Shown: positions 16,953 to 41,287 of the stretch, piece by piece | How the letters are laid out: each line of letters begins with the position of its first letter | Position numbering within the stretch: position 1 is the stretch's first letter | IMG/VR virus record: IMGVR_UViG_3300020316_000005 | Location: 1 to 64,000 of that record | Length of the DNA stretch: 64,000 nt | Strand: one strand, 5' to 3' | Source of the DNA: a virus | Taxonomy: Duplodnaviria; Caudoviricetes | The notes under the pieces: model-generated | Database searches by the model: none | Told to the model about the DNA's origin: nothing | The model's input: the letters and a program-made list of their open reading frames with translations, nothing else | Made by a program: the position numbers and the translations under genes

Positions 16953-17003
16953 AGCTCCTTATTAAGCGAGATAGTTTTTTTGTTGTCCCCGAAGGCGACG
17001 AGT

Positions 17004-17011
17004 TATTTATT
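17004..17011 (-). promoter_or_regulatory. Late promoter AATAAATA for hsp20
   Basis: Intergenic, upstream of the hsp20 leader. Confidence 0.65.
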
Positions 17012-17082
17012 GATATATCTTCAGTCTCAGAGTTCGGAGTTCCGTACGCTACATTTTCGGTTTTCCGCAAGCATTTCTTTTA

Positions 17083-17090
17083 GCTAAATA
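17083..17090 (+). promoter_or_regulatory. Late promoter GCTAAATA for the plus-strand operon
   Basis: 30 nt upstream of 17121; same CTAAATA core as other late sites. Confidence 0.6.
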
Positions 17091-17120
17091 GGCTTAGAAC
17101 TAACTTTATTAAACGGGTTA

Positions 17121-17615
17121 ATGAAAAAAGCATTACTAGCTTTTGGAATGATTTTGATGGCAACACCCGCATATGCTGGTGGTCTTGTTACTAAGCACTC
17201 AGCAAGTGTTCAACTGACTGTTGATGCTGCACGTGCTACTGCCACAAGAATTGGGTCCTCGTTCAGTATCTCAGGATCAAATATTGATACTACGGACGGG
17301 TCAACTGCAGGAACAGTTTCTGCTGGTACTATCACCTCTGGTGTGTACAATCCTGGCACTATTGCTGCCACACAGGATACTGCTGGAGCAGCATTCAGTT
17401 TCAGTCAATCTTATACACAGGCTGACGCTGTACCCACAAGTGCTACAACTTTGGGTGCTAATCCTAACTTCGGTTCACTTACGACTTATGCGGCAGGCAC
17501 AAAAGACACCCTGGCAGGTACTGTAACCAGTGCAGGTGTTCTCACCGTGACGGCTGGTGGGGCAGGTACAAGTGCTACAGGTCAATACGTGAGCGAGATC
17601 ACCGTCATTGACTGA
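17121..17615 (+). CDS. Secreted Thr/Ala/Gly/Ser-rich beta protein with signal peptide
   Basis: MKKALLAFGMILMATPAYA Sec signal with AxA site; near charge-free mature region. Confidence 0.8.
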   Translation: MKKALLAFGMILMATPAYAGGLVTKHSASVQLTVDAARATATRIGSSFSISGSNIDTTDGSTAGTVSAGTITSGVYNPGTIAATQDTAGAAFSFSQSYTQADAVPTSATTLGANPNFGSLTTYAAGTKDTLAGTVTSAGVLTVTAGGAGTSATGQYVSEITVID

Positions 17616-18058
17616 TGACTTCTGGAAAGACGATACTTTGGTGTGTCCTGTCTGTGGTGGGTGTAAGTGCCATACTTGCACCTGCCCAGGCGGTCCCCGT
17701 GGTCCCAAATTTTCAGCAGGGCTCAATGACGAGCCACACAGAAACAACATCAAAGATAACCGAGACCATAAATTCAATGGACTACTCAACTGGTTATCAA
17801 TATTCCGCAACAGGTAGTGGTGTAACCGCTAATGGAAATCTGTCTCCAGGGACAGGACCTGTAACTGTAACTATTAACGGAGTGACTTCGCAATGGACTG
17901 GCGTGACAAGTACACCTCAATTCACACAAACAACACCAGGAGCAGCGTTTCAATTCACGCAGACGTACAAAGGTCCTGGTTTGCAAAACCATACGATTAT
18001 CGAAAGAGTGACCGAGGTCACAAGCGTAACAGATACCACAAGTATCTTCTCCCAATAA
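17615..18058 (+). CDS. Secreted Thr-rich beta protein with signal peptide
   Basis: MTSGKTILWCVLSVVGVSAILAPAQA signal; TGATG coupling to the previous gene. Confidence 0.8.
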   Translation: MTSGKTILWCVLSVVGVSAILAPAQAVPVVPNFQQGSMTSHTETTSKITETINSMDYSTGYQYSATGSGVTANGNLSPGTGPVTVTINGVTSQWTGVTSTPQFTQTTPGAAFQFTQTYKGPGLQNHTIIERVTEVTSVTDTTSIFSQ

Positions 18059-18693
18059 TTGCTGCTTTAGTAGCATCACCTGTAAATGCAGAATCAGTAG
18101 GTGGTGTGTCTGCTACTGCAGCTCCAGTGGCAAATAGCTCTGGCTCAGTGACCAACCAAGCTATCCAGGTTTTACAAGGTCCATATATTACTAACACTTA
18201 TGGGGGAGGGATCCAGTGTCAAGGTGAAACTGTAAACTTCACACCTTTCATCACTGGTAGTGCATCAGCACAGAAACCTTTTGAGGATTTCTATGATACT
18301 CCTGTGTACGATATGCGTGACTTAGATGATGACGGGGCACCTGATAATCCTGGGGACATATTATTCTACCAACCGACACGTACTGGACAAAAAGATAACT
18401 ACAACATCTCTGTAGGTATTAGTGCAACGTGGTCTGTTCCAAAAGATAAGAAACTACAAGCACTTTGTAAGGAAGCAGCACAAGCAAACATTGCTTTGAT
18501 GCAACAAGCACAAGCAAATAAGAGATTGGATTTTGAGATCGCAAGATTAAAGAATTGCGGAGAATTATTAAAATCTGGAATTCGCTTTGCCCCTGGTACA
18601 AAATATGCAAAGATCTGTGAGGATGTACAAGTGAAAGGTGTGAACTTTATGGTTCCACACATACACCCCATCCCTGACCTCCCTAAGAACTAA
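17893..18693 (+). CDS. Putative exported / outer-membrane protein (TolC-half-like pattern); start uncertain
   Basis: KYLLPIIAALVASPVNA signal-like segment; amphipathic strand SVGISATWSVP followed by a long helix; four Cys. Confidence 0.7.
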   Translation: MDWRDKYTSIHTNNTRSSVSIHADVQRSWFAKPYDYRKSDRGHKRNRYHKYLLPIIAALVASPVNAESVGGVSATAAPVANSSGSVTNQAIQVLQGPYITNTYGGGIQCQGETVNFTPFITGSASAQKPFEDFYDTPVYDMRDLDDDGAPDNPGDILFYQPTRTGQKDNYNISVGISATWSVPKDKKLQALCKEAAQANIALMQQAQANKRLDFEIARLKNCGELLKSGIRFAPGTKYAKICEDVQVKGVNFMVPHIHPIPDLPKN

Positions 18694-19478
18694 TGGATAT
18701 TCCCGAGATCAACATCAAGGGTAAGGATATTGGTGAGATCCGAATCCCTAGTGTGCCTGATTATCTGTTGGATCCACCCACAGCGGTCCCGATCTATCCG
18801 CCTGTAACAACACAGGTAGGTGTGCCTATCGTAGACATCCCTGGCTGTGTAGAAGCACACGAACAAAATAGTGATAGGGAAAGGAGTGGAATATTATCTG
18901 ATGATGATCCTAAAGGTGTCAAAGTATATTGTGATGCAGGCGTACCATCATTCAATCCTATTGACTACAACGCAGGTAAGTTGAAGTGGTCTGGTGAAGC
19001 AGAAGTTCCACCAGTTAAACCACCAGAAGCACCAGAAGCAAATGCACCCGAGATCCCTAAGGATGCAGCGGGTGCAGTTATCAAGTGTCCTACAGAAGCA
19101 CAGCAACTAAAAGAACCTGTGGGTACGTTGGTGGATTCTGGTAAGAAGAAAATTGTTGAATATAGATTGATCGGTCAGGAATGTATTCCTATTAAAGAAG
19201 ATCTGAAAATACCTGATCAGATCATTAAAGCAATCCCGTCAGCAGGACAGGTCACAACTACAGCATCGATTGCTGTTGTGGCAACTGCCGCTGCTACAGC
19301 GACACCTCTTTTGTTGAAGGTTGTTAAACCAATAGTCAAACAGATAATCAAGAAGGTTCAAAAACTATTAGGTAAAGAACCTCCCAAATTATCCAGACTT
19401 GAGATACAAACTAATACTTATCGTGAGAAAAAAGGAATGTCTCCTTTGAAGTTTGGTGCGAAGAAAAAGAAAAAGTAA
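18693..19478 (+). CDS. Pro-rich protein with Cys pairs and C-terminal membrane anchor
   Basis: TAATG coupling; GCVEAH/YCD and KCP/ECI; hydrophobic ASIAVVATAAATATPLLL followed by a Lys-rich tail. Confidence 0.75.
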   Translation: MDIPEINIKGKDIGEIRIPSVPDYLLDPPTAVPIYPPVTTQVGVPIVDIPGCVEAHEQNSDRERSGILSDDDPKGVKVYCDAGVPSFNPIDYNAGKLKWSGEAEVPPVKPPEAPEANAPEIPKDAAGAVIKCPTEAQQLKEPVGTLVDSGKKKIVEYRLIGQECIPIKEDLKIPDQIIKAIPSAGQVTTTASIAVVATAAATATPLLLKVVKPIVKQIIKKVQKLLGKEPPKLSRLEIQTNTYREKKGMSPLKFGAKKKKK

Positions 19479-20048
19479 TTAGCAATCTGTGAATGCTTCA
19501 CCAACTTGTGAACCAACTTCGGAACCAATGTTCTGACCTAACAGCATTGCCCAACCACCTGCTAACCATCCAATATATGGGATGCTAGAGACTGCTGGGA
19601 CAGCAATGCCAGCGGCAATGCTAGTTCCTGCCATTGCACCTTGAGACCGTGCGCCAGCGTCCGCCCTGATACACTCTTCGCTTTTTGCAAGGTTCTTTCC
19701 CTCAGCGTCTGAGACGTTACCTCCGATATTGCGAACACCATCCATCGTGTATTGGTCACGACGGAACTCACGACGCATTTCTGTTGTAGGACCAAACAGT
19801 CCACGCTTGTCCTTATCTAGAGTCAGAGATCTATCAGACTCAAGGACTGTTGGATCGTTTGCTTTGTATTCGATCTTGTAACCATCTCTGGTTGCCTCTA
19901 CCTTATAGGAAGAGTAGTCTCCATTGGGAAACTGAATTGCAGGGAACTCTGGAACTGAGTTATCTTTAATCAGATAACCCAGCAATCCAATGTGAGCTAC
20001 TGCAAATAGACTGCCTGCGGCAATCGCAACAGTCTTTAGCGGTTTCAT
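19479..20048 (-). CDS. Membrane protein with C-terminal glycine zipper
   Basis: N-terminal hydrophobic segment; GAMAGTSIAAG...PYIGWLAGGW...GQNIGSEVGSQVG. Confidence 0.7.
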   Translation of the reverse strand: MKPLKTVAIAAGSLFAVAHIGLLGYLIKDNSVPEFPAIQFPNGDYSSYKVEATRDGYKIEYKANDPTVLESDRSLTLDKDKRGLFGPTTEMRREFRRDQYTMDGVRNIGGNVSDAEGKNLAKSEECIRADAGARSQGAMAGTSIAAGIAVPAVSSIPYIGWLAGGWAMLLGQNIGSEVGSQVGEAFTDC

Positions 20049-20293
20049 AATCCTGGTACTTGAATAGGTACAGGTCCTTCAGTTGCTCCAGGCAATGCAT
20101 CAGGAATTGCTGAATCCAACATTCCAGGGAGTGCATCAGCGATTGCTCCTGCTGCAGCCTTAGTGATGCGTTCTCTTGCTTGTTCGGCAAGTGCTTCTCT
20201 ATTGAGATAAACAACTGTACCAGCACCAATAATGCTGGCAGTTCCTAAGAACGAAATGACTGCTAATACGTTAATAATTTTCTGCATAATCAC
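20045..20293 (-). CDS. Small N-terminally anchored membrane protein
   Basis: IINVLAVISFLGTASIIGAGTVVYL TM, helix, Pro-rich tail. Confidence 0.65.
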   Translation of the reverse strand: MIMQKIINVLAVISFLGTASIIGAGTVVYLNREALAEQARERITKAAAGAIADALPGMLDSAIPDALPGATEGPVPIQVPGL

Positions 20294-20736
20294 ATTTTGT
20301 AAGTGTCATCTGTAGTAATCTTAAGTGGTGCTTGTTCAACTTTAATAGTTTGAACAGGACCAGAAGATTTTGCAGCTTCAATCAGTTTTTCCAAATCTGC
20401 TTTAGTGATACCACCAGCGGCAGCAGCGGCAGCGTTAGCACCATTCATTTTCATAGTGCCGTCACCTGATTTCTTAGCCGTTTGAACCCCGAACGTAGCT
20501 AAAACCCCAGTAAACACGGAGGCTATGAAGGTCGGATCGAGATCTTGCTCAGGAAACTGAAGTGCTTTAGGAAGATCTACATACGCTAGAGTTAGGATGC
20601 CACCAGACCATACTAAAATTCCCAACCTTACAAACGTAGACAGAATTGCTAGTTGCTCTTCCTTGTCTTCAGATGCCTCTTTAAGTTTACCGAAGATACC
20701 CTTCTTTTTGGGTTCCTCCTGTTTTACTTCAGACAT
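20290..20736 (-). CDS. Two-TM membrane protein (holin-like topology)
   Basis: Two hydrophobic segments flanked by charged termini; late promoter upstream. Confidence 0.65.
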   Translation of the reverse strand: MSEVKQEEPKKKGIFGKLKEASEDKEEQLAILSTFVRLGILVWSGGILTLAYVDLPKALQFPEQDLDPTFIASVFTGVLATFGVQTAKKSGDGTMKMNGANAAAAAAGGITKADLEKLIEAAKSSGPVQTIKVEQAPLKITTDDTYKM

Positions 20737-20758: not shown

Positions 20759-20766
20759 TATTTAGT
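20759..20766 (-). promoter_or_regulatory. Late promoter ACTAAATA
   Basis: Overlaps the regA stop, about 23 nt before 20736. Confidence 0.6.
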
Positions 20767-38843: not shown

Positions 38844-38868
38844 AAAAAAAGGACCCCGAAGGGTCCTT
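38844..38868 (-). terminator. g23 terminator with UUCG tetraloop
   Basis: GGACCC-TTCG-GGGTCC-TTTTTTT. Confidence 0.9.
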
Positions 38869-38893
38869 GTGTGTTGAATATATGACCAACGGA

Positions 38894-40240
38894 TCACATA
38901 AGGTTGTCAACCAGAACACGTCTGTAGTAACGGTTAGCGTTAGCGGTGAGTGCACCACTACCCTGGGAGGTACCTTCTGCGAAGGGGTTAGCAACGAGAC
39001 CGTATCTGGTCTTGAAGCCGATCTTCGGCTGGAAGGTGTCCTGACCAACGGCGCGAACCATCTGCAGAGGCACGTAAGGGCAGTAGAAGAGACCTGCGTC
39101 ATATGCACTGCTACCTTTGTAACCTGCCACATAGAAGTGACGGTCAGAAACGTTAGCAGAGTAAGGATCGACGTAGACCTTAATACGACCGTTAAGAGTA
39201 CCTGCGAGGGTGCTGCTGTTGTCGTCGGGGAGCAGGTTGCTGTTACCAGCAAGTGCGGGGGTGTAGTCAAGAACACCAGCCATAGACAGAGCAGATGCCA
39301 CATCAGCGGAGCAGATGAGGATGTTGCCCTTTCCACGACGAGTCTCGTGACCGATTGCGTTCATATCTCTCTCAATCTGGAAGAGGAGACCCTTGAACTT
39401 CTCAACAGACCAGCGACCGTTGGAGTCAACGTCGAGGTCGAAGATACCTGCAGTTGCAGTGTTGTTCTGAGCGCCAGGACGAGCGATCTTGTAGACAGTT
39501 CTAACAACTTCTCTGTTGATCTCAGCGAGAACTTCAGTAGAAAGGATGTTAGCGAGTTCGCTCTCAGCATCCAGACCGTGAACTGCTTTCAGGTCTTGAG
39601 CAAGTTCCAAGCTGTACTCAGCTTTCAGTGCTCTGGACTTAGCAGTCACAGTGACCTTCTCGATGGAGAAGTTCATTTCTGCGAACTGGTTACCTGCAGC
39701 ATCACCCAGTGCTTCTGCCTCGGCGGTAGGCATACCGTCGGAGGTGTTGTAGGTGCCGCTGTCGTTCAGCAGACCAGGGTTGCTACCTGCCTGAGCAGTT
39801 CTACCCAGATCAGATGCTGCGTTCTCTGCGGAGAACTCGGTGTCTGCCTCGTTGAAGAATGCTTCAGTACCAGCAGTACGGTTGGTGCCATAACGGGAGC
39901 GCATTGCGAAGATCAGACCAGTAGGTCCAGTCATCGGTTGCACACCTGCGATGTCATAAGCAATCAGCTTAGGCATCGAACGGCGAATGAGGCTAATCAG
40001 AACGGGGTCGAAACCAGCAACAGGACCAGTTGCAGTGGAAGAACCACTGAAACCAGCAGTGCCAGCAGACATTGTAGGTGCTGCTTCAGTCAGCACGCCA
40101 CGCTCTTCAGCCAGGAACTTTTCTTGGTTTTCAAGCAGGACTGCGGTTACCGCTTTCTTATAGCTATCCTTGATGGAATCAAGACCTTCGCAATTAAGAA
40201 CGGGGGACCACTTTTCCTGCAGATGCTCGGATTTGAACAT
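38894..40240 (-). CDS. g23: Major capsid protein gp23
   Basis: LLENQ, GVQPMTGPTGLIFAMR, EINRE, FYCPYVP, KTRYG; VLTE-A cleavage site. Confidence 0.99.
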   Translation of the reverse strand: MFKSEHLQEKWSPVLNCEGLDSIKDSYKKAVTAVLLENQEKFLAEERGVLTEAAPTMSAGTAGFSGSSTATGPVAGFDPVLISLIRRSMPKLIAYDIAGVQPMTGPTGLIFAMRSRYGTNRTAGTEAFFNEADTEFSAENAASDLGRTAQAGSNPGLLNDSGTYNTSDGMPTAEAEALGDAAGNQFAEMNFSIEKVTVTAKSRALKAEYSLELAQDLKAVHGLDAESELANILSTEVLAEINREVVRTVYKIARPGAQNNTATAGIFDLDVDSNGRWSVEKFKGLLFQIERDMNAIGHETRRGKGNILICSADVASALSMAGVLDYTPALAGNSNLLPDDNSSTLAGTLNGRIKVYVDPYSANVSDRHFYVAGYKGSSAYDAGLFYCPYVPLQMVRAVGQDTFQPKIGFKTRYGLVANPFAEGTSQGSGALTANANRYYRRVLVDNLM

Positions 40241-40294
40241 TTGCTTTTTACCTCTTTAGGTTATAGTTTTGGAAAAATTGGTTTAATGACTAAT

Positions 40295-41287
40295 TCACTT
40301 AGTCCAGCGACGGAGCGCATCGACGTAACGTGACATCGATTCCGTCATATCGCTATCCACAACAGGTTGGACATCTTCAGCAATCGTCTCTGCTGCCGCT
40401 TGGGGCTTGCTAGAGAAATACGACTCTTTCAGAGTCTCGATTTTGCTGCGGAATGACTCTTCATCTTCAAACTCAACACCCTCTGCCAGACCAGCAAGCT
40501 TTTCCCTTTCGGTAGCTGCCAGACCCTCAGAGATCTCACTCACAATCCCATTCTTCACGAATGCACCAACCTCACGGGTCAGAGCAACGTTCTTATCGAT
40601 TTGCTCGTTGAGTTTTGCTTCCATCGAATCTAGTTCTGTCACCATCTCAGAGATGATGTCAGTTTTTTCTTCGGGAACCTCAATATGGTTCTCGACGAAT
40701 ACTTTTTTGAGACCAGCAACAACGCTCTCAGCAATCTCGGACTTCAGTCCAGTTTCGATTGCGATCTCGTTCTTGCCCATCCACTCTTGCACAGCATAAG
40801 TCAGATACTCATCGACTTGCTCTGCGAGAGAAGCTTTGACTGACTCAACCTGCTCACTGAGTGCTGTTGCATACTCACCGTGAACACGATCGAGTTCCTC
40901 GTTGAGGCGGGAAACAACTGCAGCTTCAAAGATTGTTGCTGCTTTTGCCTTGAACTCCTCACTCAGGTCCTCGCCCTCAGTCAGTGCTGCCACGTCTGCG
41001 CTCAGATCGATTTCGATCAGTTCATCACCTTCAGCATTCTCTGCTTCCACAGATTCGTGCTTCTTGGGCGATGCGTCAGAGGGCTTGGTCTTGGGCGCGG
41101 ATGCCTGGGTCTGAGAAGGAGTCTTCAGTTTGTTAGACTCATCATCAGGTTTGTTGTTTGTAGGGGTAGGACCGCCCAGGTCCTCAACCGATCCCAGCGA
41201 AGAACCATCAGCAACGGCACCGTCGAACTTAGCTTCGGTGACTTCTTGTTGTTCTTCGGAAACCATCACTTCTTTTTCTTGCGACAT
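40295..41287 (-). CDS. g22: Prohead core scaffold gp22
   Basis: LSEEFK.KAATIFEAAV, VDEYL.Y, LKESYF. Confidence 0.95.
   Translation of the reverse strand: MSQEKEVMVSEEQQEVTEAKFDGAVADGSSLGSVEDLGGPTPTNNKPDDESNKLKTPSQTQASAPKTKPSDASPKKHESVEAENAEGDELIEIDLSADVAALTEGEDLSEEFKAKAATIFEAAVVSRLNEELDRVHGEYATALSEQVESVKASLAEQVDEYLTYAVQEWMGKNEIAIETGLKSEIAESVVAGLKKVFVENHIEVPEEKTDIISEMVTELDSMEAKLNEQIDKNVALTREVGAFVKNGIVSEISEGLAATEREKLAGLAEGVEFEDEESFRSKIETLKESYFSSKPQAAAETIAEDVQPVVDSDMTESMSRYVDALRRWTK

Follow-up and report, generated by a model that had tools for sequence, protein, structure and literature searches.

The DNA analyzed here (the window) is a stretch of 64,000 nt, corresponding to positions 1 to 64,000 of the IMG/VR record IMGVR_UViG_3300020316_000005 (109,882 bases), and its source is a T4-like marine cyanophage (Kyanoviridae). 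The minus strand of the window carries the genes for DNA polymerase gp43, hsp20, regA, the clamp loader and gp23. On the plus strand, a first-pass annotation, made from the letters alone, had placed four open reading frames (ORFs) at positions 17083-19478 and described them as a late operon that resembles a surface filament or pore system. All four ORFs, here named g1 to g4, were found at this location. Based on their sequences and on their distribution among related phages, g1-g4 most likely make up the exported half of an envelope cassette that is mobile among marine picocyanophages and expressed late, and that also includes three small genes (m1 to m3) on the opposite strand. The cassette is real, widespread and uncharacterized.

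Each of the four genes was matched end to end by a PHROG family (g1 by 564, g2 by 650, g3 by 848 and g4 by 570; E 7e-71 to 2e-137), and they were the sole plus-strand genes with family support in the window. None of the ten other long ORFs on the plus strand matched a PHROG, in agreement with the view that g1-g4 form the only credible plus-strand unit. The longest of these ten (488 amino acid residues, 38867-40333, plus strand) had no family match. It runs antisense along the full length of gp23 (major head gene; 38894-40240, minus strand), of which it is most likely a shadow.

The g1 gene (17121-17615, plus strand) encodes a protein of 164 amino acid residues (labeled "OMP1"; T4-GC 237), and the g2 gene (17615-18058, plus strand) encodes a DUF6322 protein of 147 residues (T4-GC 236). 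Sec signal peptides were judged by inspection and conservation, that is, by the presence of a basic n-region, an h-region and a small-x-small cleavage site. Such peptides, which the first-pass annotation had also recognized, are predicted in g1 (approximately residues 1-19, cleaved at AYA/GG) and in g2 (cleaved at AQA/VPVVPNF), and among ~40 diverse orthologs of each protein the n-, h- and c-regions and the A-x-A cleavage sites are fixed in place while the hydrophobic cores drift. The mature proteins are rich in T, S, G and A, nearly uncharged and predicted to be all-beta; their C-termini are strand-like and conserved, and the mature g2 protein as a whole is highly conserved. Against Pfam PF19847 (DUF6322), g2 scored 137 bits (gathering cut-off, 30.6 bits). 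The g1 protein remained under the threshold of this family in the Pfam copy used, and relatives of g1 bear precomputed PF19847.5 labels. When the two were aligned by hhalign, a probability of 88% was obtained (E 2.8e-6), and the g1 profile also weakly matched the g2 gene of Syn30; by these profile comparisons, g1 and g2 are distant paralogs.

The g3 gene (17893-18693, plus strand) encodes a protein of 266 residues of the Syn9 gp165 family (T4-GC 235). No canonical start codon is located near its hydrophobic segment, and the frame begins at a conserved ATG situated 55 codons upstream, 165 nt inside g2 and in the -1 frame. Within the overlap, the g3 frame contained 2 stops in 3245 codons (59 distinct sequences), compared with 5.0 stops per 100 codons when that frame was read through the remainder of g2 and 5.8 for the other frame; the overlap is therefore kept by selection. 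A long overlap of g2 and g3 is also seen in P-SSP7 and S-RIP1, which are T7-like. Synonymous variation of g2 was slightly lower within the overlap (17893-18058). At the N-terminus, a basic extension of 50 residues is followed by a short signal-peptide-like h-region and a VNA/ES site; the mature part (∼200 residues) contains an invariant block of 40 residues (residues 70-111) and four invariant cysteines. The sequence motifs quoted for g1-g3 by the first-pass annotation and the signal-like segment it reported for g3 were all present, with the qualification that the segment lies behind the basic extension. As causes of the invariant block, an RNA element and an overlapping gene were both rejected, because synonymous sites in the block vary normally. 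The same holds for the g1 and g2 signal peptides and for the cysteines of g3, which are retained with normal synonymous drift; selection therefore acts on the proteins.

The g4 gene (18693-19478, plus strand) encodes a protein of 261 residues of the Syn9 gp164 family (T4-GC 234). It has no signal peptide; a Pro-rich N-terminus and spacer, with invariant PGCVEAH and YCD motifs, are followed by a moderately hydrophobic segment (residues 193-211) and a basic tail. The Pro-rich spacer, cysteine pairs, hydrophobic segment and basic tail described earlier were recovered here, except that the second cysteine pair is missing in several lineages. Taken together, the predictions would place three products outside the cytoplasm and one at the membrane, as had been proposed.

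The orientation of g4 in the window is unusual. Among the loci containing both g3 and g4, the two genes were convergent in 90 of 96 and co-directional in the remaining six, the window included. In Syn9, S-CAM22, S-CAM1, S-SSM6b and Syn30, the g4 ortholog is located on the main strand, convergent with g1-g3, and the gene table of Sullivan 2010 shows g4 as co-directional in P-SSM4 and P-RSM4 too. On a FastTree phylogeny of g2 and g3, the co-directional state appeared at no fewer than three separate places, and a convergent locus (L018) was sister to a co-directional one (L088); comparison of L018 (4642-5399) with L088 (3880-4637) revealed a clean inversion whose ends coincide with those of g4. 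According to this tree, the gene has been flipped in situ three or more times within the related phages. Inverted repeats flanking g4 that might explain the inversion were looked for, and none was found. Given that the adjacency of g4 is kept and its orientation is not, this gene need not be transcribed together with g1-g3.

The arrangement of the plus-strand genes is compact. The g1 stop overlaps the g2 start (TGATG) and the g3 stop overlaps the g4 start (TAATG), which, with the 165-nt overlap of g2 and g3, bears out the tight coupling noted in the first reading. Late expression is suggested by the motif [AC]TAAATA, which occurred 22 times in the window (12 expected; 22 was reached by no shuffle), 21 times on the minus strand and once on the plus strand. 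The sole plus-strand copy (CTAAATA, 17084-17090) stands 30 nt before the g1 ATG, at the late promoter that had been predicted, and of 47 distinct upstream regions from relatives, 30 had the same motif at a distance of 25-38 nt from g1. Another CTAAATA (20759-20765, minus strand) lies upstream of m3, ahead of the convergent unit, so that late-type motifs stand before both convergent units. The gap between hsp20 (minus strand) and g1 (16953-17120, 168 nt) holds two divergent late-type motifs, the one facing hsp20 being ATAAATA (17004-17010, minus strand). At the other end, the stop codons of g4 (TAA) and m1 (read as TTA on the plus strand) meet at 19476-19481 as TAATTA with no bases between them; the convergent late transcripts thus have no room for a terminator and may overlap as antisense RNA.

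Three minus-strand genes continue the block. The m1 gene (19479-20048; 189 residues, T4-GC 219) encodes a protein with an N-terminal transmembrane (TM) segment and a C-terminal glycine-zipper-like hydrophobic region. The m2 product (20045-20293; 82 residues, labeled "plasmid stability", T4-GC 414, PHROG 568) has one TM segment, at the N-terminus, and a tail rich in Pro, and the m3 product (20290-20736; 148 residues, DUF6450, T4-GC 218) has two hydrophobic segments with a charged tail and is holin-like. The architecture of the m3 protein and of its 79-residue homolog in the siphovirus P-HS2 would suit a class II holin (a small protein of a lysis cassette with two TM domains and a charged C-terminus), which makes them candidates for hole formation. 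In tblastn searches, g1-g4 were 57-85% identical to genes of Syn9 and S-CAM22, in the same order and between regA and hsp20. Matching by coordinates to the table of Sullivan 2010 identified g1-g4 as T4-GC 237, 236, 235 and 234, with 219, 414 and 218 for m1-m3, and the whole cassette as Syn9 gp167-gp161. By gene content, the conserved unit is g1-g4 with m1-m3 (six to seven genes) and not a four-gene operon; the four genes are co-located, as in the first-pass annotation, with g4 convergent in most loci. The genes have been catalogued before (as T4-GC clusters, Syn9 gp161-167 and "OMP1"), all without an assigned function, and no functional study of them was found in the literature.

The first-pass annotation had gone further and proposed that g1 and g2 polymerize into a surface filament, with g3 as an outer-membrane pore and g4 as its periplasm-spanning partner in the inner membrane. 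The paralogy, beta-rich composition, predicted export and conserved strand-like C-termini of g1 and g2 would suit such subunits, and the Pro-rich spacer of g4 is TonB-like. Relatives of known assembly systems were sought. When the seven proteins were scanned against Pfam and NCBIfam, only DUF6322 and DUF6450 were returned, without matches to curli, chaperone-usher or type IV pilin domains, and no G/FTLxE-type leader was visible in the sequences. Profiles of g1, g2, g3 and g4 gave nothing meaningful against PDB sequences; for g3, the Pfam scan found no match of any kind at E up to 1, OEP/TolC included, and the profile found nothing in the PDB sequences at E up to 10. Searched against 1.8 billion representatives, the g3 profile obtained 575 matches, and the 150 matches listed appeared to be its own family or fragments, with no distant named relative among them. 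In the ESM Atlas, g3 retrieved its own family alone and g4 nothing.

Structure prediction with AlphaFold2 (AF2) gave no usable model. The g1 model (40-sequence alignment) was all-beta and of low confidence (predicted local distance difference test score, pLDDT, 59.6), and a fold search with it returned only its own family in BFVD and a Z score no higher than 2.7 in the PDB; the g3 model (48 sequences; pLDDT 48.3) was too poor to use. Failure on monomers is possible for obligate oligomers, and neither a polymer nor a ring could be read from models of this quality. The likeness of g3 to the strand-proline-helix unit of TolC was not supported, given that g3 has a single predicted helix (residues ∼186-227, ∼40 residues) in ∼200 mature residues and no internal repeat. 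The role of g4 in spanning the periplasm was not supported either, since a signal peptide is absent. No match to TolC/OEP, CsgA/G, TasA, a pilin, an usher or a secretin was obtained, the neighbors of the four genes encode small membrane proteins only, with no chaperone, usher or secretin and no assembly machinery, and T7-like phages keep only one DUF6322 gene. The filament and pore are accordingly judged very improbable, the least probable of the explanations weighed here. The statement that no characterized system matches these genes was upheld by the sequence and structure searches alike.

The distribution of the cassette was then compared among phages of different morphotypes. In the myovirus S-PM2, all seven genes are missing, regA abuts hsp20 and the profiles found nothing elsewhere in the genome, with positive controls in Syn9 and Syn30 working; the block has therefore been gained or lost as a unit. 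In the 38-kb Prochlorococcus siphovirus P-HS2, a single block holds counterparts of six of the cassette's genes, all but m1 (E 1e-15 to 1e-34); homologs of m3, g1, g2 and g3 lie on one strand and converge on those of g4 and m2, the latter two directly after the tail-fiber gene. The T7-like phages P-SSP7 and S-RIP1 contain a g4-like gene, m3, a g2-like gene and a g3-like gene, in that order, between the tail-fiber and terminase genes. Of the two g4-like matches, that in P-SSP7 is weak (E 3.7e-4), and S-RIP1 gives the better one (E 4e-6). P-SCSP1k, a record also filed under Autographiviridae, contains m3 and g3 at least. Among the small genes, m1 is a member of the cassette in myoviruses only, being absent from P-HS2 and P-SSP7, m2 has a homolog in P-HS2 (E 1.3e-15), and m3 has homologs in P-HS2 (3e-23), P-SSP7 (1e-33), S-RIP1 (1.8e-15) and P-SCSP1k (5e-12). 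Cyanophage records with a member of the g3 family number about 430-450 and span all three morphotypes; g3 is, on this basis, the cassette's signature gene in myo-, sipho- and podoviruses. At least 7,998 matches to g1 at E ≤ 0.001 were obtained from 8,000 candidates scored; the cassette is thus very abundant in marine metagenomes.

A scan of genome contigs returned phage-like contigs alone and no true host homolog. Matches in cellular genomes were mostly to bins (metagenome-assembled genomes, MAGs) and single-cell assemblies, with the phage gene order kept. The cassette was also seen in normal order on a 188-kb contig (L093, NZ_RMVE01000006.1) filed under the isolate Nonlabens xiamenensis strain 1Q3, and on contigs binned into Euryarchaeota, Lewinella and Formosa MAGs (L089, L090 and L091); these four probably come from cyanophages and were assigned to cellular genomes in error.

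Elsewhere among cyanophages, the cassette is interrupted by auxiliary genes, namely 6-phosphogluconate dehydrogenase (gnd), plastocyanin (petE), 2-oxoglutarate (2OG)-Fe(II) oxygenases and an SNase-like nuclease (inserts at L060:3977-5906, L028:4490-5291, L090:2823-4239 and L062:2529-2993), and no lysozyme was detected among the insert ORFs scanned. The cassette is therefore also an insertion hotspot. In S-RSM2, g1 ("OMP1") adjoins psbA and psbD. These inserts and neighbors would accord with a metabolic helper, with g1-g3 acting in the thylakoid lumen or otherwise on photosynthetic membranes, like phage plastocyanin. Cyanobacterial Sec signal peptides also target the thylakoid lumen, and alone they cannot tell lumen from periplasm. 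A helper of this kind is nevertheless very unlikely, because P-HS2, listed with no auxiliary metabolic genes in the paper using that phage, has the cassette, because the cassette is placed between tail-fiber and terminase genes in T7-like phages, because its promoter is of the late type, and because its matches in cellular genomes keep the phage gene order and yield no true host homolog.

The possibility that the products are virion components was addressed with the virion proteome table of Sullivan 2010 (S-SM1, Syn9 and S-PM2). T4-GC 218, 219, 234-237 and 414 were all absent from it, which constitutes negative evidence only; S-SM1 and Syn9 encode the cassette, and their virion proteomes lack its products. 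The earlier claim that g1-g4 are not virion proteins is in line with the absence of T4-GC 234-237 from this table.

In another explanation, the cassette would remodel the envelope without lysing it, its products coating or plugging envelope components against superinfection or against the sticking of progeny to debris, as do T4 Imm/Sp and T5 Llp. The prediction that the products are exported or membrane-bound agrees with this, as do the dispensability of the cassette in S-PM2 and the fact that phages with the same hosts have host-range-specific cassettes in common; the invariant block of 40 residues in g3 moreover suggests binding of a conserved host component. Exclusion genes, however, are usually early, and the window shows a late-type promoter only, with no sigma-70-like -35 element upstream (by inspection). 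The cassette is, in addition, shared by myo-, sipho- and podoviruses with different receptors, and it occupies a late or lysis-gene location in T7-like and siphovirus genomes. Remodeling of this kind is therefore considered unlikely, if less so than the metabolic and filament explanations.

The reading now in the lead, one of the options ("lysis aid") raised in the first-pass annotation, is that the cassette is a late envelope-breaching or lysis module of "spanin-less" phages. It is favored tentatively, at somewhat less than an even chance. Since no known relative was obtained by sequence or structure search and the AF2 models were poor, the argument for this role rests on genomic context. Each product is predicted to be exported or membrane-associated, with late-type promoters ahead of the genes and a holin-like protein in m3; the cassette is inherited together and passed between unrelated phages that share hosts; it lies at the T7 holin/spanin position in T7-like phages and after the tail fiber in the siphovirus; and its products are missing from the virion proteomes of S-SM1 and Syn9. 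P-SSP7, Syn9, P-SSM4 and other cyanophages (about 20) were classed as spanin-less by Kongari 2018 (PMC6139136).

In such a module, g1, g2 and g3 would be exported by Sec late in infection to the periplasm or outer envelope, with g3 stabilized there by two disulfides, and g4, m1, m2 and the holin-like m3 would be placed in the cytoplasmic membrane. Once the holin-like protein fired, the exported and anchored parts would jointly breach the wall and the outer membrane, and the cassette would thereby do the work of the spanins, and perhaps of the endolysin, of other phages of Gram-negative hosts. The protein locations, their mutual contacts and the lysis role are all inferred. In a more specific form, the cassette would be a non-canonical machine for breaching the outer envelope, common to the three picocyanophage morphotypes, with the DUF6322 proteins and g3 as outer partners and g4 as the inner one, replacing spanins and possibly the endolysin. 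This version is plausible and less probable than the general one.

Several observations weigh against a lytic function. No muralytic domain, lipobox ([LVI][ASTVI][GAS]C) or canonical spanin topology was found in the seven proteins. The g4 protein has no signal peptide by which its N-terminal 190 residues would reach the periplasm, and its hydrophobic segment contains K, P and D in most homologs. The weak g4-like match in P-SSP7 covers mostly this hydrophobic segment. S-PM2 lyses its host without the cassette, and seven genes are more than are usually needed for lysis. Finally, given the low confidence of the AF2 models, no fold or complex backs the proposed arrangement.

Marine cyanophages kill a large share of the Prochlorococcus and Synechococcus of the ocean, and to our knowledge the genes with which they lyse their hosts are unknown. 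The cassette is a concrete candidate, open to experiment, for the means by which these phages burst their hosts; should its function not be lysis, it would still be a pan-cyanophage envelope function without known relatives.

Of the features of the cassette, only the holin-like architecture of m3 and the Sec signals correspond to known kinds. Compared with known systems, the cassette differs from the TolC/OEP family (Pfam OEP, PF02321) in scale and design. Beta segments followed by a long helix are common to g3 and TolC, whereas the TolC protomer has ∼430-500 residues with tandem strand-helix repeats and g3 has 266 (∼200 mature), one helix and no repeat. The unimolecular spanin gp11 of T1 resembles g4 in its C-terminal membrane segment and extended Pro-rich body; unlike gp11, g4 is without an N-terminal lipobox or signal peptide, and the two have no sequence similarity. 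With respect to i-spanin topology, TM segments are N-terminal in m1 and m2, and the only hydrophobic segment of g4 is C-terminal. From the holin-endolysin-spanin cassettes (lambda S/R/Rz/Rz1; T7 17.5 and 18.5/18.7), the present one departs in that no muralytic domain, lipoprotein o-spanin or type II i-spanin was found, in its extra genes, and in the signal peptidase I (SPase I)-type signals of its exported proteins. It shares with those cassettes a late, compact arrangement of small membrane proteins and exported proteins, as well as exchange among unrelated phages of one host group. In T7, holin 17.5 and spanins 18.5/18.7 are located between the tail-fiber and terminase genes, and the cassette has the same genomic position in T7-like cyanophages. 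Its counterparts among catalogued genes are the clusters of Sullivan 2010 and Syn9 gp167-gp161; g4 is inverted in the phage studied here (as in P-SSM4 and P-RSM4), and the genes are gene-by-gene orthologs, set in the same order between regA and hsp20.

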